From positions 4,305 through 68,304 of the forward strand of contig JAGBAV010000037.1 in assembly GCA_017938795.1 (NCBI GenBank): a DNA stretch of 64,000 bases, read 5' to 3'. Each line of letters starts with the position of its first letter. Position 1 is the stretch's first letter. Shown piece after piece: positions 4,808-57,862 of this stretch. A program made the translations under genes and the position numbers. Source of the DNA: Clostridia bacterium (GTDB lineage Bacteria; Bacillota; Clostridia; Christensenellales; Aristaeellaceae). The notes below the pieces were generated by a model. That model did no database searches and was not told the DNA's origin. It saw nothing but the letters and a program-made list of their open reading frames with translations.

Positions 4808-4850
4808 CCAAATGAAAAAGGATACCCTGAAGGGTATCCTTTTCATTTGG
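4808..4850. terminator. bidirectional hairpin terminator abutting the ssrA 3' end
   Basis: aaatgaaaaaggataccc / tgaa / gggtatccttttcattt (one bulge), with T runs readable on both strands. Confidence 0.75.
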
Positions 4851-5194
4851 TGGAGGTGAGGGGAATCGAACCCCTGTCCGAAAAAGCGACTGCCGGGCTT
4901 TCTCCGAGCGCAGTCTGTGTTTTAACATTCCCTCTCCCAGGCGCCCGCAGACAGGCTCAAGGGTTCAGTAGCTTCATAATGTGACCATACGGCAAAGCTT
5001 AGGCATGGTCATGGCCCGCTAATTGACGCCGGGATCCAGCGCAGCGGGATCGCTGGGCCGACGCGCAGCCTGATTAGGCCGCGAAAGCGTATTCGCTATT
5101 GTCAGTTAATATTTAATTCCCGCTTTTAACGTGGCGCGGGGCCACGGCTCGCTTACCCGACCGCCCACGATCCCGTCGAAACCAGTACACCCCC
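4848..5194 (-). ncRNA. ssrA: tmRNA (transfer-messenger RNA)
   Basis: Minus-strand 5' end GGGGGTGTACTGGTTTCGACGGG. 3' end GGGGTTCGATTCCCCTCACCTCCACCA. Internal tag frame ...GAC AAT AGC GAA TAC GCT TTC GCG GCC TAA (..DNSEYAFAA*). Located immediately downstream of smpB. Confidence 0.93.
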
Positions 5195-18225: not shown

Positions 18226-18254
18226 TGCGCACGGGGGAGCAAAGGAGTACAAGA

Positions 18255-18283
18255 AAAGACGTCCCGGAAGGGACGTCTTTTTG
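18255..18283. terminator. intrinsic (bidirectional-looking) terminator after the SDR gene
   Basis: aaagacgtccc / ggaa / gggacgtcttt, then tt. Confidence 0.75.
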
Positions 18284-18491
18284 CTTTGCAGGAGATCGCA
18301 CAGATATTGTTGCTGCAAACACTGGTTTCTCGAAGATTGCAGATTGTTCTGGAAGGGGAGCTCCCGCTGATGGTATTCCGTATAGAGATTTCTTGCTGGA
18401 GGCCTGATTCGGTGAGCACTGCCGGTACTGGTGCTGCGCCGGTTGTGGCTGGATACAGATTGTCAGGGCTGGCTTTCAGCTGCTAGAATCT

Positions 18492-21400
18492 TTAATTGCT
18501 GCTGTGTTCGTTCAATGCAAGTATTTCATGGATCGTTTCTTCCAGCAGATCTTTGACGTCGCTCCGTCCCCTACCCTGCGTCTGTCCGATATCTTGTGCG
18601 ATGTGGTATCTCGCCAGCGCGTTTTCATATCTGCCGCACGCTGCCTGTGCCCTGCCTGCACCGAGGTAGGAACGCATCCTTGCGCAGACGTCCTGCCTGC
18701 GCCCTTCGGCCTCGCATACCTCTCTGACATTGACGGCACGCTCCCACCAGCTGCAGCTTGCTTCCTTCTCGTCTTTCGAGCTGCAGATGTACGCCATCTG
18801 CTCGCAGGCTGTTGCAATGGCAACAGGATGGTTGAGTATCTTGCGTGTGGCGTAGTCTTCAAGCATTTTGATACTCTTTTGGCATACAGCTGAAGCCTCG
18901 TCCATACGGTTAAGTTTCACCAGCACAGACGACAGATCGGCATACTCTGCGGCGTGAAAACGCGCCAGCATGAACGGCGTATCTTCAAGCTGCTCCAGGA
19001 GGTCAATGGTTGCTTTCCGAAGTTCAATAGCTTTTTCAAACTGTCCTTGCATTTCGGCAATTCTTGCCATCCGGTCATAGCAGTCTGCAGCGTGCTGTGC
19101 AGACTGTACATCCTTGTCATGATAGCGCTGGATGTAGTAGTCGCAGCAGGCGGAGAGGATATCCCGGGCTTCATCCAGCCTTTTAAGTTGGACCAAGGCG
19201 CGCGCACGGCTTCTGTTGAGCCCCATGATTCTGCCTGCGTCTGCACAGGATGCGAGCAGATTCAGCGACTTGTCAAGCATCGTAAGCGCCCGATCATTCT
19301 GCCCGTATTCAAAGGCCAGGAAAGCCATGTTTTCGTAGAGCGCGGCTTTTTCGCTGGGCGTCATTCTGCTGCCAGCCATCTCATCCAGAAGAAGCATCTG
19401 TTCATGGCTGCTGCCGATCCTGTTGTATGTCAGCGCGTGATCAGCACCCCTGAAGCACCATGTCAGATAGGTGTTCATAGCGGTCCATTTTCCGTCGAGC
19501 AGCTGCGAGGTATCTGCTTCCATGCCGCCGCATCGGAGCATATCTGCCATGCATTCGGTGATCAGCAGCGGCTCTTCGCTGATCCCTTTCTTCTTTTTTT
19601 CCGCCTCTTCGCAGATCGTATCAAGGGCCTCTTCGATCACCCTGCGAATAGCCTGATCGCCGTTGGGAAGCTGCCGGAACACTGCCGCAGCCAGATCGTC
19701 GTTGACGATACGCAGACGTGTTTCGCCTGTCCGCATGTATCCATCTGCCTCATAGCCGCGCTCTGCCTTAAGCAAAGGTGCAAGGTCGTTGATCATTCCC
19801 AGCATCTGGAAGGTTACCTGCCCGCTGCCGCAAAGCCGCGCCAGCTCTTTCAGCGTAAAACCTCCTGCTGCGCCTTTGGCGCTGATTACGGCCAGCATAT
19901 CCATCATCTGGACGCCATTTCTCTCGTTGTAGCTTTGCACCAACTGGCTGATATATGCTTTTACGATGGATTCACCGGAGGGAAGCTGATCGCTGCGCAG
20001 TCCTTCGTTCAGCAGCGCGGCATACATGCTCAGATACAGGACGCGGTATCCGCTCATCCGGGCGAGCGTTTCAGCCGAACAAGGCAGCTTGACTTTGCAG
20101 TTTTTCGTCAGGAATTCCCGGAGGAACTGCATATTCTCTTCGCCGTCCAGGCGGATGGACAGCTTTGCATTGATTTTGAGACTGATAAGTTTCTGCGTGA
20201 ATGCGGGAGGGAGATCTTCCTGATCCGGGTCGCGGGAGACAAGAAGGATATGCACGCCATCGCTGAGCTGGCTTTCGTCGGGGAGCATTTTCCACAGGCT
20301 GTCATTGACAATCTCGTCAAGGCCGTCAATGATCATCAGCAGTTTGCTTCGCCCTCTGCGGAGTTCAGTGAACCGGCGGGTATCCCCCAGGAAAGCAGCG
20401 AAGGCCTGTGCGGGCGTATGCCCTTTGGCAATATATTCGTCAATCCGCGTGTAGTCGGCTCTGGGCTCACCATCCCCCTGATGACACATCTGCCACATCA
20501 GCTCCGTGGCCCGGACAAAATCCCGGTCGCTGCGCAGCTGCGTTCTGCTGATGTGGTATGTACGTACATCGATGTCAGGAGTGAGTTCAATGGGTCTTGC
20601 ATAGCGGCGATTCAGCATTTCTGTGAATGTGCTTTTTCCTGTTCCGCGGGGCATTCTGATAGCGTAGATACCCCTTGGGTGTGAGTCGATCTGTGCGCGT
20701 ACCCAGTTTATAAGATGCGTGGGCGTAACGAGGCTGTCGTCGTCATGGATCCGGTTCAACAGCAGCTCTTCATTCAGTGTCATATCATCGGCGTCAACAG
20801 CAAGATCGGTGGCCATCCTGTTGCTTTGCCGGATTCTATGGAGCTCTGCAAAGAAGGGGTTTCTTTCGTCCCTGATCCGCCCATCGGTATAGCACAGACG
20901 ACGCGTCTTGCGGGAGGAACGCAGACTATCATAGAAGAATTGACCATTCTTTATGGGAACTATATATGGGTCAAGAACGAATGTATAGCCGTCGCTGCCG
21001 CCGGTGCAAGTGATTGCTTTATCACTGATACGGCGTGCAGCAGAATGCCCCATAAGGATATGGCTGTCCTGTTTAATGATATGCTGCTGCATATCCGGTG
21101 CGATTTGAGCAAACAGCGATGCGATTTGCATAAGCTTTTCCTGCAGATTGCTTCTGAAAGCAGGATCATCTGAGAATCCCAAAGCACCGTGTCCGATCAT
21201 CTGATTTCGCCATGCAACAATTCCCATGTCGTGATAGGCTGTGATAATCTTGCCAAGTGTATTAACCAGATAGGCAGGCTTGCTGTTGTTGTGCTGAATG
21301 TAATATCGATGGATCAATTGAGCGAATCTTTCCCAACTGCTTAGTGATGGATTGGCGTCGGTTATGCTGCAGGCGACCTGATCCGTAAAGGCGGGCAAAG

Positions 21401-21743
21401 ATGCGTGATGCGCATAGGCGCAGCAGACAAGGGATTCGAACTTGATGACAGTCTCCAGGGTATCCTTGATTTCCAGCAGGACGCAATACGGCTTGCGCCT
21501 GCTGCATGCATCGTAAAGCCGTTTGTACTCATGTGCAATGACGGCGGGAAAGCTATCGAATGCTTCCCAATACCACAATGATTGGTCGTCGCACAGTCTT
21601 TGCCAGAAAGCCTCTCCGTCCTCTGCTTCCTGCGTATAGGGTGTGCCGCAGAAAGGACACATTGTTATGCTGTCAACGAAGCGGTTGATTCTGGCAAACT
21701 GCGGGCATTGTATGTTCTGGCAGATTCTTTCAATAAGAGCCAT
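18492..21743 (-). CDS. STAND-type P-loop NTPase with N-terminal Zn-ribbon + unassigned (possibly HEPN-like) domain and C-terminal TPR-like repeats
   Basis: Start chosen at MALIERIC (AGGAGGTG RBS), not the track start at 21968. Zn ribbon CQNIQC...CPFCG. Walker A MPRGTGKSTF and Walker B KLLMIIDGLDE. The C-terminal roughly 350 aa form a helical-repeat (TPR-like) region. GC is far below the flanks. Confidence 0.85.
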   Translation of the reverse strand: MALIERICQNIQCPQFARINRFVDSITMCPFCGTPYTQEAEDGEAFWQRLCDDQSLWYWEAFDSFPAVIAHEYKRLYDACSRRKPYCVLLEIKDTLETVIKFESLVCCAYAHHASLPAFTDQVACSITDANPSLSSWERFAQLIHRYYIQHNNSKPAYLVNTLGKIITAYHDMGIVAWRNQMIGHGALGFSDDPAFRSNLQEKLMQIASLFAQIAPDMQQHIIKQDSHILMGHSAARRISDKAITCTGGSDGYTFVLDPYIVPIKNGQFFYDSLRSSRKTRRLCYTDGRIRDERNPFFAELHRIRQSNRMATDLAVDADDMTLNEELLLNRIHDDDSLVTPTHLINWVRAQIDSHPRGIYAIRMPRGTGKSTFTEMLNRRYARPIELTPDIDVRTYHISRTQLRSDRDFVRATELMWQMCHQGDGEPRADYTRIDEYIAKGHTPAQAFAAFLGDTRRFTELRRGRSKLLMIIDGLDEIVNDSLWKMLPDESQLSDGVHILLVSRDPDQEDLPPAFTQKLISLKINAKLSIRLDGEENMQFLREFLTKNCKVKLPCSAETLARMSGYRVLYLSMYAALLNEGLRSDQLPSGESIVKAYISQLVQSYNERNGVQMMDMLAVISAKGAAGGFTLKELARLCGSGQVTFQMLGMINDLAPLLKAERGYEADGYMRTGETRLRIVNDDLAAAVFRQLPNGDQAIRRVIEEALDTICEEAEKKKKGISEEPLLITECMADMLRCGGMEADTSQLLDGKWTAMNTYLTWCFRGADHALTYNRIGSSHEQMLLLDEMAGSRMTPSEKAALYENMAFLAFEYGQNDRALTMLDKSLNLLASCADAGRIMGLNRSRARALVQLKRLDEARDILSACCDYYIQRYHDKDVQSAQHAADCYDRMARIAEMQGQFEKAIELRKATIDLLEQLEDTPFMLARFHAAEYADLSSVLVKLNRMDEASAVCQKSIKMLEDYATRKILNHPVAIATACEQMAYICSSKDEKEASCSWWERAVNVREVCEAEGRRQDVCARMRSYLGAGRAQAACGRYENALARYHIAQDIGQTQGRGRSDVKDLLEETIHEILALNEHSSN

Positions 21744-21969
21744 ATCTGACACCTCCTGTAATAAATGGTTCGTTGTGTTTCTGGTGTTTCCTTCCGGATC
21801 GTTGATATCGAGCGAGGAGGTGAATGATTTGTTGAGATGATTATGCTGGTGAATGGCGGGGATGATTGAAAGGAGTATCCCTATTCTGATACAGATGATT
21901 TCGCTGTCTGATTTCTGGATCGATGAGCGTTCAGGCGCGTGCGTGAACACGGCTTGCTTTGCCCGCATA

Positions 21970-21998
21970 TTGACAGAATCTCAAAACCCGGCTACAAT
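21970..21998 (+). promoter_or_regulatory. sigma70-like promoter of the ABC-importer operon
   Basis: TTGACA (21970-75), 17-nt spacer, TACAAT (21993-98). Confidence 0.6.
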
Positions 21999-22004
21999 AA
22001 TTCT

Positions 22005-22252
22005 GTATACAACTGAAGAGTATTTCCGATGTCCGGCGGCCTAAGGCGCAGGCTATGGCTGCCCGACCGGGACGCTTTGTCCCCATACCGCATGTGCCGG
22101 AAACGACGCGGTACTCCGCATTTGAGAAAGGAAATCGACCGGCATGACGCATGCGCGCCGTGCTTTTGATGCGACGATCTGCCTTTTTCGTGCAGATCGT
22201 TTTGCTTTTATATCCATTCGGGCGTAACGCCCGAAGTCAGGAGGGATCCTCG
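22005..22252 (+). promoter_or_regulatory. about 250-nt structured leader, riboswitch-like transcription attenuator (class unassigned)
   Basis: Long 5' UTR between the promoter and ATG 22253. Nested helices tgccgg(22095)/ccggca(22139) enclose the hairpin gcgg-tact-ccgc. An intrinsic terminator sits at 22172-22210, and a second hairpin ttcgggcg-taa-cgcccgaa lies next to the RBS. Confidence 0.5.
22172..22210 (+). terminator. leader (attenuator) terminator upstream of the permease gene
   Basis: acgatctgc (22174-82) / 9-nt loop / gcagatcgt (22192-200), then tttgctttta. Confidence 0.7.
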
Positions 22253-44553: not shown

Positions 44554-44625
44554 ATAGTAAATTGCGTGTATTATGCCAATTTGATTGCTGAAATACAGAA
44601 GGATACGGAAAGGCTGGTGTACAAC

Positions 44626-47070
44626 ATGCCGCGCATTTCAATTATTATGCCGGTATACAATATGGAGGCGTACCTGCCCGGTACGCTGGGATCCTGGGCG
44701 GCGCAGACGCTTGAGGATATCGAAGTGATCTGCGTTGACGACTGCAGCACGGATGGTTCTTACGCGCTGCTGCAGGCGTGGGCGCAGAAGGATCCGAGGT
44801 TTATCGTTCGCCGGTTTGAGCAGAATCAGTCTGCATGGATGGCGCGCAAGCTCGGCATCCAGCTTGCTCGCGGCGAATACATCATGTTCGCCGACGCTGA
44901 TGACGAGATCGCGCCGCAGGCCTGCGAGGAGCTCTATGCCCAGATGCAGGAGCAGCCGGTGGATATTCTCCAGTTCAATACGGAGATTATCAATGTGAAT
45001 GGCCTGCCCGAGAAGCGGATTGAGGCTATGCAGGCGTTTGTTACGCCGTATGATGGCACGCTGAATGGCAGCGAAGTGTTTGATGGCTGCTTCCGCGAGA
45101 AGAAGTACATGTTTTCCTTGTGGAACAAGATTTACAGCGCGGAGCTGTGCCGTAAGGCAGCGCGGGATATGGAGGATGCCATTCTGCCAAAGGCGCAGGA
45201 CAAGCTGGCATATCTGATTCTGGCGTATCATGCCCGCAGCTACCGTGGATTGCCGGACAAGTGCTACTACAAGTACTACTTTGGCCGCGGCGGTACGGGC
45301 TTTAACCGCATGACCATGAAGCAGTTCGAACGTTACTGCACCATGGCGCGCATTGTGGACGGCGCGAAGCGCTTCTTCGAGAGTAAGGGCGAGCTGGAGG
45401 CGTATGCGGATGTCGAGGAGACGAACCGCAGGCAGTTGATGAATGATTGTCTTTCACGATGGCTGACCGAAGTGCCGGAAAGCGATTCGGTGCGTGCGTT
45501 CGATCTGATGTTTGATTACTGGCGTGCAGATGATATCATCAGTGTTCTGGCAGAGAAAATGTACTTTGACCGATATGCGGTGATGAAAAAAATCTTGGGC
45601 GCCAACATGCTGACATACGATAGGCGGCCGGTTAAAACGGTTGCGGCGTATTATCACTCTTGTGTGAATGGCGGTGTGCAGCGTGTGCTATGCCAGCTGT
45701 GTGAGCTGTGGGTGAAGATGGGACTCAACGTTGTCGTACTGACAGATGAACAGCCAGAGGAGAATGATTATCCGCTACCAACATGCGTGAAGCGTGTTAT
45801 GTTGCCACACTACATGGAGACAAACCGACATAATTATGGAGATAGGTGCCGTGCATGGCAAAGCATTATCCGCGAATACGACATTGATGCTGTGGTCTAT
45901 CATGCATGGACGTTGAACATGATGCTCTGGGATGAGATGGCAATCAAGTCCGGCAGTGCAGCACTGATTGCGCACTGTCATAATGTGTTTTCGCTCAGCA
46001 TTCTCAGAGGATGGGATTCTGTGCGCAATATGATGGCGGCTTATCCGCTTGCCGATGGTGTTGTCACGCTCAGCGGTACGGACCGCGAATTCTGGAGCCA
46101 CTATAATGCCAATACCTATCAGACCATCAATCCTTTTACCGAGGAACCCGGTGTTTGGACGCCATCTGCCTGTGATACGCATGATATTCTCTGGCTGGCG
46201 CGGATCTCGTATGAGAAGCATCCCTTCGACGCGCTGCATATTATTCGCCGCGTCGCGGAGGCTGTGCCGGACGTGAAGCTGCATATCGTCGGAGATGCCA
46301 AAGAGGATAAAATCAGGGAAGATTTCCATAACGAGATTGAACGGATGGAATTGGAAGAGCATGTCGTACTGCATGGCTTTCAGCGGGATGTCAAGCCGTA
46401 TTACAGCAATGCTAGCGTGTTTTTAATGACCTCAGAGTATGAGGGATATCCGTTGACGCTGCAAGAGAGCAAGATGGCTGGCCTCCCCTGTGTCATGTAT
46501 GAATTGCCGTATCTGACGCTTGCAGAGGATGGGAGAGGCATCATCTCCGTGCCGCAAGGCAATATCAGCATGGCGGCACAGGCGCTGATTGAACTGCTGA
46601 CAAATGATGAAATGCGCAAGGAGTACGGGAGAGCTGCAAGGCGGCACGTAGAGGAACTGTTTGGTTTTGATTTTGATAAACTGTGGACAGAAATCTTCGA
46701 AAGCCTTACGCGGGAGAGAGTGCCCATTTCCTATGGATGCAGTTATCGCATGCTTGAGACGCTGATTGACCATCATGAAATGAACCATAAGCGCGAGAAG
46801 AAGAAGATCAGTTTGCTTGAGAAGCGGATCGACGAACGACAGAAAAAGTATGATGATGAGCGTGAAAAGAGTACTTATCTGAGGAAGAAGGTTGCCTACC
46901 TGCGTAATAAAGCAGAAAAACAGGAAAAGACTGCTATAGTAAATCCCGGTAAACTTGTCCGGGCGGCTGTGCTTGTGGAAAAGGGATTCCATGTGTTCAG
47001 AGAAAAAGGGGCTGTCTATGCAATTAGGCGTGCTATGTCCAGAATCAGACGCTGTATTATTCGGAAATAA
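44626..47070 (+). CDS. bifunctional glycosyltransferase (GT2 domain + GT4/GT1 domain) with C-terminal coiled coil
   Basis: GT2: ISIIMPVYNMEAYL...VICVDDCSTDGS. GT4: SEYEGYPLTLQESKMAGLPCV. K/E-rich tail. Start is uncertain (GTG 44566 vs ATG 44626). Low GC. Confidence 0.8.
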   Translation: MPRISIIMPVYNMEAYLPGTLGSWAAQTLEDIEVICVDDCSTDGSYALLQAWAQKDPRFIVRRFEQNQSAWMARKLGIQLARGEYIMFADADDEIAPQACEELYAQMQEQPVDILQFNTEIINVNGLPEKRIEAMQAFVTPYDGTLNGSEVFDGCFREKKYMFSLWNKIYSAELCRKAARDMEDAILPKAQDKLAYLILAYHARSYRGLPDKCYYKYYFGRGGTGFNRMTMKQFERYCTMARIVDGAKRFFESKGELEAYADVEETNRRQLMNDCLSRWLTEVPESDSVRAFDLMFDYWRADDIISVLAEKMYFDRYAVMKKILGANMLTYDRRPVKTVAAYYHSCVNGGVQRVLCQLCELWVKMGLNVVVLTDEQPEENDYPLPTCVKRVMLPHYMETNRHNYGDRCRAWQSIIREYDIDAVVYHAWTLNMMLWDEMAIKSGSAALIAHCHNVFSLSILRGWDSVRNMMAAYPLADGVVTLSGTDREFWSHYNANTYQTINPFTEEPGVWTPSACDTHDILWLARISYEKHPFDALHIIRRVAEAVPDVKLHIVGDAKEDKIREDFHNEIERMELEEHVVLHGFQRDVKPYYSNASVFLMTSEYEGYPLTLQESKMAGLPCVMYELPYLTLAEDGRGIISVPQGNISMAAQALIELLTNDEMRKEYGRAARRHVEELFGFDFDKLWTEIFESLTRERVPISYGCSYRMLETLIDHHEMNHKREKKKISLLEKRIDERQKKYDDEREKSTYLRKKVAYLRNKAEKQEKTAIVNPGKLVRAAVLVEKGFHVFREKGAVYAIRRAMSRIRRCIIRK

Positions 47071-47105
47071 TTTTGCGCTGCCTGAAAAGACAAGAATGAA
47101 AGGGA

Positions 47106-49109
47106 ATGGATATGGGAAATCAATTGTATGACAAGATTTACGGCAAGCCGACGCCTGAACAGCCATATTATGATTGCCTGTATGCGAGGGGATTTCTGAT
47201 TGCTGACCGGGAATACACCGTTCTGGATCATTGGAAGCGGATGTATTTCGGCTGTGGTCTGTATATTACCTATGACCCGGATAATCCATGTGTATACGTT
47301 GAACAGAATGATGCGTGGACGCTGATTCTGGGCACAGTGATGGACATGATCGACTGGCATATGGACAGCGGAATTGTGGCACGCAAGGTGGTACAGCTGT
47401 ATCAGAAAGGTGAGAATGCTCTGTATGACTATCTGGATGAGCTGGGCGGCAGACATTTGATTGTATATGGCGATAAGGAGCATGCGTATCTGGTGCAGGA
47501 TGCGACCGGTATGCGATCCTTGTGTTATTACCGCCATGAACTGCTGGCAGCGTCGCATTACCAGATTATTGCGGGGATCACGGGTGCGGAGCGACTTGAG
47601 TTTGTCAGGGAATATGTGGAGCGGAAGCCCCTGCCGTGGCTGCTTCCGGGCAACTGCACGCCATTCGTTGATGTTATGGCCATGATGCCCAATCACAGAC
47701 TGGAACTTCACGGCATGAGACTTAAGCGAATCTTCCCGCGCGGACCGAGGCTGAACGCCGACGTCAACGAAGTGATGGATTATATCGCTGACTGCTGTAA
47801 AAAGCAGATGGATGTTCTGACGGCTGACAGAAAACTGATCTTTTCCCTCACAAGAGGCAACGATGCCCGTATAACACTGGCTGCTTTGGGCGGCAAGACC
47901 GATGGACATATCTTCTATACATATCATGCACGTGGCGATCAGGCGCAGGAGGTTGACTATATATTCACCAAAGCGTTCTGCAAGGAACATCAGATGGAAT
48001 TTGTCGAGATTCCGATGGATGGAAAAGCTGTGCAGGATGAGTTTGATAAACTAAGTCCGGTTTGTTATCACAATCACTATCACCAGCATGTATTCCGAGC
48101 AATTCCCGGCGTCAGGGCGCATCTGCCGAAGGGAAGACTGGCTGTGCGGTCGAATCTGGTGGAGATTATCCGTTCGGACTTCTATTCGGATCTCCCGCAG
48201 TATTGTGATTGGGAAAAGGTTGCGCGCAGATTGTCATACCCGGATAAGATGGATGACGAATGGTATCGCTCGACAATGAAGCGCTTCTATGATGAGCATG
48301 AATTTGGGAACATCTACGATTATCATACGGGAGATCTGATCTATTGGGAATACAGAATGGGATTGTGGATGAACAGCGCTGTGTTGCTCAAGGATGATAC
48401 CTGTTTTGACACTTATATGCTGTTTAACCAGCGGAAGCTGCTTCAATACGGTCTGGGCATCCCACGGTATTTCAAAAAGATGGATACCGTCGTTCATGAA
48501 GTGATCCGGCGTCTTCAGCCTAAGCTGCTGTATGATATTCCCAACACAGAGTATACGCTGATGGATTATTATCTCCCGGATAGCAGGACGATGATTGAAC
48601 TGGGCGGCGGGACGATGACGGGAATGTCGGCTCAGAAAGAGGCGATCCCCGTTTACCTGTCGGCAGGGCGTTTTCAGGCGGTGTGCAGCTTTGGCAGCAG
48701 CAAGATCCGGAAGGGAGACCTGTATAAGTACCGCATTCCTTTCAGGATTGAACACAGTGGTGTATATGCTGTTCAGATCACGGTATTTGTGCCGAGCATT
48801 CTGCAGAAAGCTTCAAGTTTTGCGTGGTTTGAAGTTCTGCTGTGCGGAAAGCTTTGCTATAAACAGAATCTGTTGGATTATGCGAATAAGGATAATCAGA
48901 TCAATATCGTAACAAAACTTGATCCGGGAGAGAAAAGCATCACATTTGTTATGCACTCGAAGACTGACTATGACGCCGGCAGTCACGAACCGGGTGTTCT
49001 TCTGATCCGCAGCATAACAGCATCCAGACAGTTCAACTACGAAGAACCCGAAGAGCCGATTGTAATGACAACCAGCCAGATGTATGCACAGAAAGTGAAA
49101 AAGAAATAA
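47106..49109 (+). CDS. hypothetical protein (distant asparagine-synthetase-B-like layout, motifs degenerate)
   Basis: 667 aa with clean coding periodicity and a GAAAGGGA RBS. Segments DATGMRSLCYYRHELLAASHYQII and LIFSLTRGNDARITLAAL recall the AsnB Ntn and PP-loop regions, but without the catalytic consensus. Confidence 0.7.
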   Translation: MDMGNQLYDKIYGKPTPEQPYYDCLYARGFLIADREYTVLDHWKRMYFGCGLYITYDPDNPCVYVEQNDAWTLILGTVMDMIDWHMDSGIVARKVVQLYQKGENALYDYLDELGGRHLIVYGDKEHAYLVQDATGMRSLCYYRHELLAASHYQIIAGITGAERLEFVREYVERKPLPWLLPGNCTPFVDVMAMMPNHRLELHGMRLKRIFPRGPRLNADVNEVMDYIADCCKKQMDVLTADRKLIFSLTRGNDARITLAALGGKTDGHIFYTYHARGDQAQEVDYIFTKAFCKEHQMEFVEIPMDGKAVQDEFDKLSPVCYHNHYHQHVFRAIPGVRAHLPKGRLAVRSNLVEIIRSDFYSDLPQYCDWEKVARRLSYPDKMDDEWYRSTMKRFYDEHEFGNIYDYHTGDLIYWEYRMGLWMNSAVLLKDDTCFDTYMLFNQRKLLQYGLGIPRYFKKMDTVVHEVIRRLQPKLLYDIPNTEYTLMDYYLPDSRTMIELGGGTMTGMSAQKEAIPVYLSAGRFQAVCSFGSSKIRKGDLYKYRIPFRIEHSGVYAVQITVFVPSILQKASSFAWFEVLLCGKLCYKQNLLDYANKDNQINIVTKLDPGEKSITFVMHSKTDYDAGSHEPGVLLIRSITASRQFNYEEPEEPIVMTTSQMYAQKVKKK

Positions 49110-57785: not shown

Positions 57786-57862
57786 TGGCGTACCTGATAG
57801 GATTCGAACCTACGGCCTTCAGAGTCGGAGTCTGACGCTCTATCCAACTGAGCTACAGGTAC
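57786..57862 (-). tRNA. tRNA-Arg (anticodon CCG)
   Basis: Minus strand: GTACCTG-TA-GCTC-AGTTGGATA-GAGC-G-TCAGA-CTCCGAC-TCTGA-AGGCC-GTAGG-TTCGAAT-CCTAT-CAGGTAC-G-CCA. This gives a full cloverleaf of 77 nt with an encoded CCA. Confidence 0.93.

Follow-up and report, generated by a model that had tools for sequence, protein, structure and literature searches.

Proteins in which a HEPN domain is joined to a STAND ATPase and to TPRs were listed in 2013 (Anantharaman et al., PMC3710099). HEPN RNases and Zn-ribbons are also among the domains fused to bacterial NACHT (bNACHT) proteins, which have been sorted into 25 clades, and HEPN RNases are a listed class of N-terminal effectors of the antiphage members of this group (Kibby et al., bioRxiv 10.1101/2022.07.19.500537). 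In a census of STAND proteins, 198 out of 589 clades were associated with defence (Lee et al., Nature 2026, PMC13581612). Here we analyzed a gene of similar layout, located at 18492-21743 in a 64,000-nucleotide stretch of DNA from a Clostridia bacterium of the Aristaeellaceae (contig JAGBAV010000037.1, positions 4,305 to 68,304; in the following, the window). The reading that we favour, at a probability somewhat better than even, is that this gene encodes a solitary, horizontally acquired NACHT-clade NLR-like receptor with an N-terminal HEPN-like RNase head and a TPR sensor that would be triggered by a foreign protein. The protein most likely belongs to the single-protein anti-phage/anti-plasmid sensors, a family already known, and a defence role and an RNase activity are what its sequence suggests. 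Since architectures composed of HEPN, STAND or NACHT, and TPR parts have been published, the kind of system is already known; the newness is at the family level, where the effector module is missed by Pfam, NCBIfam and PADLOC and no solved structure is alike. The bacterial NACHT work of Kibby and colleagues is said to have appeared later in Cell (2023).

The gene is an open reading frame (ORF) on the minus strand that extends from an ATG at 21743-21741 to a stop codon at 18492-18494 and encodes 1083 amino acids (aa) plus stop. A protein identical to it, P0001, is present in the public protein collection. The GenBank record for the gene (MBP3655717.1, "hypothetical protein [Clostridia bacterium]") has 1158 aa and uses an upstream start, the one at 21968 to which the mechanical ORF extends. 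We rejected this start and regard the 1083-aa version as the right one, because the ATG at 21743 is preceded, at a distance of 8 nt, by a Shine-Dalgarno sequence (AGGAGG) and the N-termini of the homologues all begin at the equivalent position. The 75 extra residues (21744-21968, minus strand) have no counterpart among the homologues, and the longer version bypasses the Shine-Dalgarno sequence (21752-21757); the start of MBP3655717.1 is therefore probably mis-annotated. An earlier note on this DNA, made from the letters alone, had given the coordinates 18492-21743 and several motifs, and all of these were recovered: CQNIQC (aa 8-13), CPFCG (aa 29-33), WRNQMIGH (aa 178-185), RGTGKST (aa 366-372) and LLMIIDGLDE (aa 468-477). 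All catalytic motifs, the Shine-Dalgarno site and a terminator are present, and the gene is intact. Its parts are the following:

18492-21743, minus strand: coding sequence of the NACHT-clade STAND (NLR-like) protein, 1083 aa, complete ORF (P0001 identical; GenBank MBP3655717.1)
21752-21757, minus strand: Shine-Dalgarno sequence AGGAGG, 8 nt before the start codon (21743), read from the sequence
21624-21743, minus strand: Zn-ribbon (Cx4C...CxxC), aa 1-40, from model strands and weak ribbon matches
21090-21617, minus strand: all-helical HEPN-like putative effector domain, aa 43-218, from AlphaFold and sub-threshold Pfam HEPN matches
21441-21467, minus strand: KDTLETVIK, aa 93-101, with D94 and E97-x3-K101 (the "Ex3[KR]" of HEPN), from conservation
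21183-21212, minus strand: WRNQMIGHGA, aa 178-187, with R179-N180-x4-H185 (Rx4-6H type), from conservation
20859-21083, minus strand: beta-rich subdomain, aa 221-295 (PYI, FFFDNQ and Y285 conserved), strands in both models
20682-20858, minus strand: helical linker to the NTPase, aa 296-354, partly of low confidence, from both AlphaFold models
20154-20681, minus strand: NACHT-type P-loop NTPase core, aa 355-530, from Pfam NPHP3_N, invariant residues and AlphaFold
20628-20654, minus strand: Walker A GTGKS, aa 367-371, within the NTPase core
20313-20342, minus strand: Walker B DGLDE, aa 473-477, within the NTPase core
20232-20246, minus strand: LLVSR, aa 500-504, within the NTPase core
19668-20153, minus strand: helical and winged-helix domains, aa 531-692 (beta-hairpin 658-679), from AlphaFold and Foldseek
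18495-19667, minus strand: TPR-like helical repeat array, a putative ligand sensor, aa 693-1083, from sub-threshold Pfam matches and Foldseek

Structures were modelled with AlphaFold2 for the full-length protein (pLDDT 80.8) and for the N-terminal 345 aa (pLDDT 84.5, pTM 0.77). Together with the Pfam and Foldseek searches, the models revealed a tripartite layout: a conserved N-terminal module comes first, a NACHT NTPase and its winged helix second, and a TPR-like, hypervariable C-terminus last. The succession proposed in the earlier note, from an effector module through a STAND P-loop NTPase and a winged-helix part to a TPR array, was thereby borne out. Its description of the N-terminal region as about 400 aa of mostly helical sequence has to be corrected, since this region is made up of the Zn-ribbon (residues 1-40), an all-helical domain (43-218; 6-7 helices, mostly with pLDDT >90), a beta-rich subdomain (221-295) that the note had not foreseen, and linker helices (296-354). 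The ribbon, with strands at aa 3-8 and 16-20 of the N-terminal model, gave weak matches to the Rpo12/eS27 ribbons in the PDB and, for family members, to the DZR/Zn_ribbon models of Pfam; it is an optional accessory of the family, present in about 90 of 151 representatives (~60%). In the beta-rich subdomain the strands are spread across aa 221-294, residues P259, D272 and G288 are at least 90% conserved, and Y285 is invariant.

A word-indexed homologue search returned 20 relatives only. An exhaustive search with a hidden Markov model of the N-terminal alignment found the module in 853 protein clusters (50% identity) at E ≤ 1e-3 and in 368 clusters at E ≤ 1e-30. Nearly all carriers are 1000-1700 aa long and have the module at their extreme N-terminus, and across hundreds of clusters it is strictly coupled to NACHT NTPases. 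The median length is 1302 aa, which places the window copy with its 1083 aa at the short end. Residues W57, P66, E72, Y73, D94, E97, W137, W178, R179, N180, H185, G186, A187 and Y285 are invariant, and K101 is at least 90% conserved among the homologues. The signature WRNxx[IVL][GA]HG was found in 151 of 156 cluster representatives, so that the R/H motif, on whose conservation the earlier note had staked its proposal, is indeed kept, and [KR]DxxExxh[KR] in 147 of 151. Both R-N-x4-H and E-x3-K are therefore near-universal in an all-helical domain. In agreement with that note, which could not assign the module to a named family, no significant match was obtained in Pfam, NCBIfam, PADLOC, the PDB or with Foldseek; the module profiles (A2 and A3) yielded weak Zn-ribbon matches and one chance match only when compared with PDB chains.

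The NTPase core was recognized by the Pfam family NPHP3_N, which matched aa 355-504 with 25.5 bits and was thus barely over its cut-off of 24.8; the NACHT family itself (PF05729) reached only E 0.17 in the Pfam scan of the window protein. Residues G367, G369, K370, D473, G474, D476, E477 and R504 do not vary among 20 homologues, and among 129 full-length representatives 128 have the Walker A motif and 125 have D[GAS]xDE. A Walker B motif of the form D[GAS]hDE separates NACHT from other STAND clades (Koonin & Aravind, quoted by Kibby et al., bioRxiv 10.1101/2022.07.19.500537). Since D473-G-L-D-E477 fits this form, the NTPase is assigned, by its invariant Walker B DGLDE, to the NACHT clade of STAND. 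When compared with PDB sequences, the NTPase region matched no solved STAND either as single sequence or as family profile, and as judged by sequence it is very divergent from the solved STANDs. In the model, the alpha/beta core (aa 355-530) is followed by helices at aa 535-623, a winged helix with hairpin within aa 645-690 and at least 14 paired helices over aa 695-1081, which amounts to ~390 aa of helix pairs. Foldseek with the full model had the archaeal STAND-TPR protein 6MFV as top match (E 1e-10) and also matched Apaf-1 (3J2T), CED-4 (8JO0) and the Avs5 filament (9NC9); P-loop core, helical domain and winged helix are thus all present in a fold like that of known STANDs. The tandem helical repeats fit TPR structures, with matches to the TPR domains of LGN, KLC and NprR at TM-scores, normalized to the target, of 0.5-0.8, and also TPR profiles, as TPR_MalT, TPR_12 and other Pfam models aligned with aa ~790-1010, all below threshold (TPR_MalT 25.8 bits, cut-off 45). 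The earlier note had named a confident match to, for example, a LuxR/MalT-type signalling NTPase as evidence against its proposal; a LuxR/MalT-type DNA-binding domain is absent, and neither a helix-turn-helix (HTH) nor another DNA-binding output domain was present in the Pfam and NCBIfam searches at E ≤ 1. The NCBIfam scan of the full protein gave nothing meaningful.

HEPN domains are all-alpha and are marked by an Rx4-6H motif with N, D or H directly after the R and by a second acidic residue, usually within Ex3[KR]; divergent families notoriously escape detection except by motif and profile-profile methods (PMC3710099). The helical domain of the window protein contains R179-N180-Q-M-I-G-H185 (Rx5H), in which the polar N follows the R, and E97-T-V-I-K101. 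When 47 members were scanned singly against Pfam, the only recurrent families were HEPN_AbiU2 (5 of 47) and HEPN_MAE_28990 (4 of 47), both below threshold. Within a ten-member set, four AbiU2 matches were co-linear and covered the two helices that flank the WRN motif (profile positions ~98-172 of 193), and five of seven family or sub-family consensus sequences gave the same AbiU2 match. AbiU2 (PF18734) and MAE_28990 (PF18737) resemble the module in that they have a helical domain of ~190 aa with an Rx4-6H motif of the R-N type, and by this recurrent co-linear alignment, in which profile positions ~90-170 fall onto the helices on either side of WRNxxIGHG, but are stand-alone proteins associated with Abi or restriction-modification and not NACHT fusions. 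Judged by its motifs, the N-terminal helical domain is most probably a divergent HEPN-like RNase, an assignment for which we see slightly more than an even chance.

Among the described systems, bNACHT proteins share with the window protein an N-terminal effector, a central NACHT with D[GAS]hDE, a winged helix and a C-terminal repeat sensor; fusions with HEPN RNases and Zn-ribbons are listed for them, and their C-terminus diversifies faster than the NTPase. The window protein differs in that neither it nor its N-terminal domain has a PADLOC model above noise, in that its NTPase profile matches no solved STAND, and in that the effector escapes the current Pfam HEPN models. With Avs/AVAST (Avs1-24; PMC13581612) it has in common a single large polypeptide of N-terminal effector, STAND NTPase and mostly TPR-like sensor, the fold-level match of the model to the Avs5 filament and, by analogy, an expected oligomerization upon binding of a conserved phage protein. 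In contrast to Avs, however, the family occurs mainly in Bacillota rather than in Enterobacteriaceae, and none of the named Avs families was matched by sequence. The same domain combination and a predicted role as RNase effectors of conflict systems characterize the Swt1/Abi2 HEPN fusions (Npun_F6454, MED222_16016, Desac_1927) and LA2681-HEPN+TPR (PMC3710099), whose HEPN domains are detected by established profiles, whereas the window module has only the sub-threshold AbiU2/MAE_28990 matches and adds a Zn-ribbon and a beta-rich subdomain. The suggestion that the architecture was not a recognised one is therefore correct with respect to the named Avs types and too strong for the class, as such fusions were listed in 2013 (PMC3710099) and by Kibby et al. 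The PH0952-type archaeal protein 6MFV is the best structural match for the body of NTPase, winged helix and TPR (E 1e-10), but lacks this N-terminal effector module and has no sequence-level similarity; as its domains are arranged differently, the TM-score over the whole protein is low (0.23-0.32).

In a set of 185,579 species genomes, with one genome per species, the family was found at 51 loci. These belong mostly to Bacillota (Lachnospiraceae, Clostridium, Paenibacillus, Neobacillus, Ureibacillus, Natroniella, Veillonella), with stray members in Campylobacterota, Desulfobacterota, Planctomycetota and Psychrobacter, and the distribution is patchy, as with horizontal gene transfer. Some genomes contain paralogues, either in tandem as in Psychrobacter sp. 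(L050, 9800-18555; 1488 and 1425 aa), on the same contig as in Ureibacillus xyleni (L004 and L018), or in Clostridium sp. CS001 (L006 and L016). At three loci (L020, L033, L035) the N-terminal and NACHT-TPR parts are in separate ORFs, which might be due to a frameshift or represent a naturally split form. The mean pairwise identity was 0.34 for the helical effector and 0.37 for the NTPase, but 0.15 for the TPR region, which is essentially unalignable. Such a hypervariable C-terminus behind a conserved effector and NTPase is what has been described for NLR-like receptors of bacteria.

The genes of the five closest annotated homologues (P0002 at locus L059, P0009 at L061, P0010 at L062, P0013 at L060 and P0015 at L063) all have TraG/VirD4 coupling-protein genes no more than a few kb away, and three of the five loci carry Mob_Pre, NikA or TnpV genes, among them that of P0013 with Mob_Pre and that of P0010 with NikA-like and TnpV genes. 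These neighbours identify the five homologues, which are from gut Clostridia, as cargo of conjugative or mobilisable elements. At the P0015 locus Cas1-Cas2 are found after a 946-aa gene, and the P0009 locus encodes a second TPR protein (1172 aa). Upstream of P0002, co-oriented and separated by 78 bp, lies a gene for a DUF4145 (HEPN-type) protein of 345 aa (L059, 8886-9923, plus strand; 26.9 bits, cut-off 23.1) with the motif KWGNMGSH, in which K replaces R; a word-indexed search with this protein found no relatives. Elsewhere in the family, AbiEii, a reverse transcriptase and integrases occur as neighbours, and so do DndB and a HATPase_c_3 protein. At the P0008 locus no defence neighbours were present. 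Among 133 neighbours from 16 genome loci there were strong matches to JetC/JetD, mad2/mad3, DpdF, a Cas3-like protein and PDC-S01/S02. Lee et al. (2026; PMC13581612) regard a clade as defence-associated if DefenseFinder systems occur within 5 kb above a null of 0.0153 or if at least 50% of the members have an annotated effector domain. The frequency of defence neighbours in our loci, judged from individual genes, looks elevated over this null of 1.5%, which is suggestive; the effector module itself is not among the annotated domains. The association with defence islands, for which the earlier note had proposed a test, is mixed: it is seen for some homologues, and the window copy has housekeeping neighbours.

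A large conserved gene, co-oriented and closely spaced, lies next to many of the homologues. Partner A (~710-810 aa; eight loci: L012, L017, L037, L044, L045, L046, L047, L054) is encoded directly upstream of the family gene in the same orientation, usually with a gap of <100 bp. Its N-terminus is DUF3800-like (MITIxLDExGxF), and its C-terminal part is helical/TPR; no transmembrane (TM) segment, P-loop or Pfam family at threshold was found in it. Partner B (~460-590 aa; nine loci: L014, L022, L025, L026, L028, L031, L039, L044, L050) mostly abuts the family gene, the copy at L039 being located ~2.2 kb upstream. It matched no Pfam family and consists of a soluble N-terminal part followed, in most copies, by two predicted C-terminal TM helices; it could be a membrane effector. 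Neither partner is encoded beside the window copy, and the term "single-gene" used in the earlier note holds in the window and not family-wide. We see a lesser but appreciable chance that the module represents a new effector or belongs to a multi-gene NLR system. Equally tentative is a wider interpretation, in which the module would represent a deep undescribed HEPN clade or a new effector fold and would define an unannotated NACHT receptor family of ~850 clusters spread on Bacillota conjugative elements; with partners A and B this would form a multi-gene NLR system in many genomes, and the window copy would be its minimal stand-alone form.

Several results weigh against the favoured reading of a solitary receptor with an RNase head, and the first of them concern the head. 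No statistically significant profile match of the module to any recognised HEPN family in Pfam was obtained: the best score for HEPN_AbiU2 was 15.5 bits (E 0.012; cut-off 26.8), with all scores at 11-15 bits, HEPN_MAE_28990 reached E 0.035 at best and stayed below its cut-off, and the use of consensus sequences did not raise the signal (11-15 bits). With scores of 11-15 bits the module is not an AbiU2 member by the Pfam criterion. When PDB and BFVD were searched with the N-terminal model in Foldseek, the result was only noise (best E 0.12-0.24, TM-score <0.25), with no HEPN and no analogue. In PADLOC-DB v2.0.0 the full protein had a weak TPR match alone (E 5e-4) and no Avs, bNACHT or other system model, and the N-terminal domains gave singletons only, at noise level. 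For the HEPN-type effector proposed in the earlier note, homology thus stays below threshold by sequence and was not recovered by Foldseek. The missing matches would be explained if the protein were the same NLR-like receptor with a module other than a HEPN RNase, namely an undescribed effector that is an enzyme of another class or an adaptor without catalytic activity for the recruitment of partners, and if the likeness to R-N-x4-H were convergent or coincidental. The 6-7 helices instead of a minimal four-helix bundle would suit this explanation, as would the further invariant residues W57, P66, E72, Y73, W137 and Y285 and the beta-rich subdomain, which are atypical of HEPN, and the conserved partner genes, among them that of partner B with its two TM helices, could then encode the real effectors. 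However, both independent HEPN hallmarks are near-universal, the Pfam families matched repeatedly are all HEPN and always align over the motif region, divergent HEPN families are hard to detect (PMC3710099), and the window copy is without a partner gene, yet has kept all motifs. We consider this explanation rather unlikely, though it survives best among the alternatives.

The remaining contrary points come from the genomic context. In the window, the gene is flanked by housekeeping operons, and its vicinity lacks genes for defence or mobile elements. When the 133 neighbours at the 16 loci were pooled, their Pfam content was mostly housekeeping, and the family was absent from 2.9 million viral contigs (IMG/VR) and from the PLSDB plasmids. 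In addition, many homologues have the conserved large partner genes, so that the single protein may not act autonomously. Instead of host antiphage immunity, the gene might have served a conjugative or mobilisable element as cargo, e.g., by exclusion of competitors, addiction or sensing of transfer, and the window copy would then be a stranded remnant. The proximity of the five closest annotated homologues to type IV secretion system coupling-protein genes, with Mob_Pre, NikA or TnpV at three of these loci, the isolated low-GC insert without element genes in the window and the absence from phages are all in line with this possibility. Such a context does not discriminate, however, because defence systems themselves are typical cargo of integrative and conjugative elements; moreover, other homologues lie by AbiE, Wadjet, MADS or Cas genes, the window gene is intact with its catalytic motifs, Shine-Dalgarno site and terminator, and the absence from PLSDB plasmids speaks against element cargo as well. 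A role confined to such an element appears improbable to us. A housekeeping or regulatory STAND of the MalT/AfsR/LuxR type, acting as transcription regulator or scaffold, was rejected as very improbable, since the weak TPR_MalT match, the top fold match to 6MFV as a STAND-TPR protein without immune annotation, the housekeeping flanks in the window and the existence of many non-defence STAND clades (Lee et al., 2026, PMC13581612) are opposed by the lack of an HTH or other DNA-binding output domain, a Walker B of the NACHT type and not of the MalT clade, the patchy distribution with aberrant GC content at third codon positions (GC3) and no conserved metabolic neighbourhood, and the combination of a hypervariable sensor with invariant enzyme-like N-terminal residues.

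For the favoured NLR-like receptor with a HEPN-like head, a mechanism can be proposed by analogy with Avs and bNACHT proteins and with HEPN enzymes. At rest, the TPR array and the ADP-bound NTPase would keep the protein as an inactive monomer. Binding of a foreign protein of phage or other mobile-element origin to the TPR sensor would lift the autoinhibition, upon which the NACHT module would oligomerize in an ATP-dependent manner. In HEPN enzymes the active site forms across a dimer, and RNase L and Ire1 are HEPN RNases activated by dimerization. In the same way, the oligomer would pair the N-terminal HEPN-like domains, and two R-N-x4-H motifs would form a composite, metal-independent RNase site, whose cleavage of RNA would lead to growth arrest or abortive infection. 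One may speculate that Zn-ribbon and beta-rich subdomain have a part in RNA binding or in positioning of the effector.

If this reading is true, a sizeable family (853 clusters at 50% identity) joins the catalogue of prokaryotic NLR-like immune receptors. It is found mostly in gut and environmental Bacillota, and these bacteria are under-represented in functional screens, which have centred on Enterobacteriaceae. Public records name the carriers "hypothetical" or "tetratricopeptide repeat protein", and they are invisible to defence-finding pipelines because Pfam, NCBIfam and PADLOC miss the module; the pair WRNxxIGHG and KDxxExxLK provides a domain definition for it. A HEPN effector activated by NACHT oligomerization would also be a clean bacterial parallel to RNase L and Ire1. 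The concepts remain unchanged, as the effector-NTPase-sensor logic and HEPN-NACHT fusions have already been published.

With respect to the locus in the window, the gene has a GC content of 0.529 and a GC3 of 0.607, compared with 0.63-0.69 and 0.84-0.86 for its neighbours, and is a solitary, horizontally acquired low-GC insert. It is flanked by an SDR/ROK/HPr-kinase cluster on one side and by an ABC/selenium-molybdenum operon under control of a molybdenum/tungsten cofactor (Moco) riboswitch on the other. Around the insert, no integrase, tRNA or att-like direct repeats were found, and a promoter scan revealed no convincing minus-strand promoter. The insert and the strong terminator at its end are placed as follows:

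18290-22011, no strand assigned: low-GC inserted segment, approximate (gene and its own flanks), from GC and GC3, bounded by the Moco riboswitch and the terminator
18254-18282, no strand assigned: intrinsic terminator hairpin, bidirectional and shared by the STAND gene and the convergent SDR gene on either side of it (-20.5 kcal/mol, z = -5.65)

The hairpin has a perfect 12-bp stem, a 4-nt loop and A- and U-runs on either side, and was missed by a consensus terminator scan.

The Moco riboswitch (22012-22150, plus strand; 46.3 bits, gathering threshold 36) is located directly upstream of the FecCD-type ABC transporter operon, and a strong sigma-70-like promoter (TTGACA-17-TACAAT; 21970-21998, plus strand) lies just before it. 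The operon continues with genes for a methyltransferase, YqeC, Se_S_carrier, a cysteine-desulfurase-like protein, TusA, a SelD-like protein (AIRS) and XdhC, and looks like a maturation cluster for selenium-dependent molybdenum hydroxylases. The window also contains a tmRNA gene (4848-5194, minus strand; tag peptide DNSEYAFAA) and a gene for tRNA-Arg(CCG) (57786-57862, minus strand), neither of them adjacent to the insert. A second low-GC stretch (44566-49109, plus strand; 0.49-0.56) is located between the genes for an MFS transporter and an M18 aminopeptidase. It encodes an 834-aa fused GT2+GT4 glycosyltransferase (GT4-conflict 25.9 bits, cut-off 26), followed by a 667-aa protein without Pfam match, and is probably another acquired segment.

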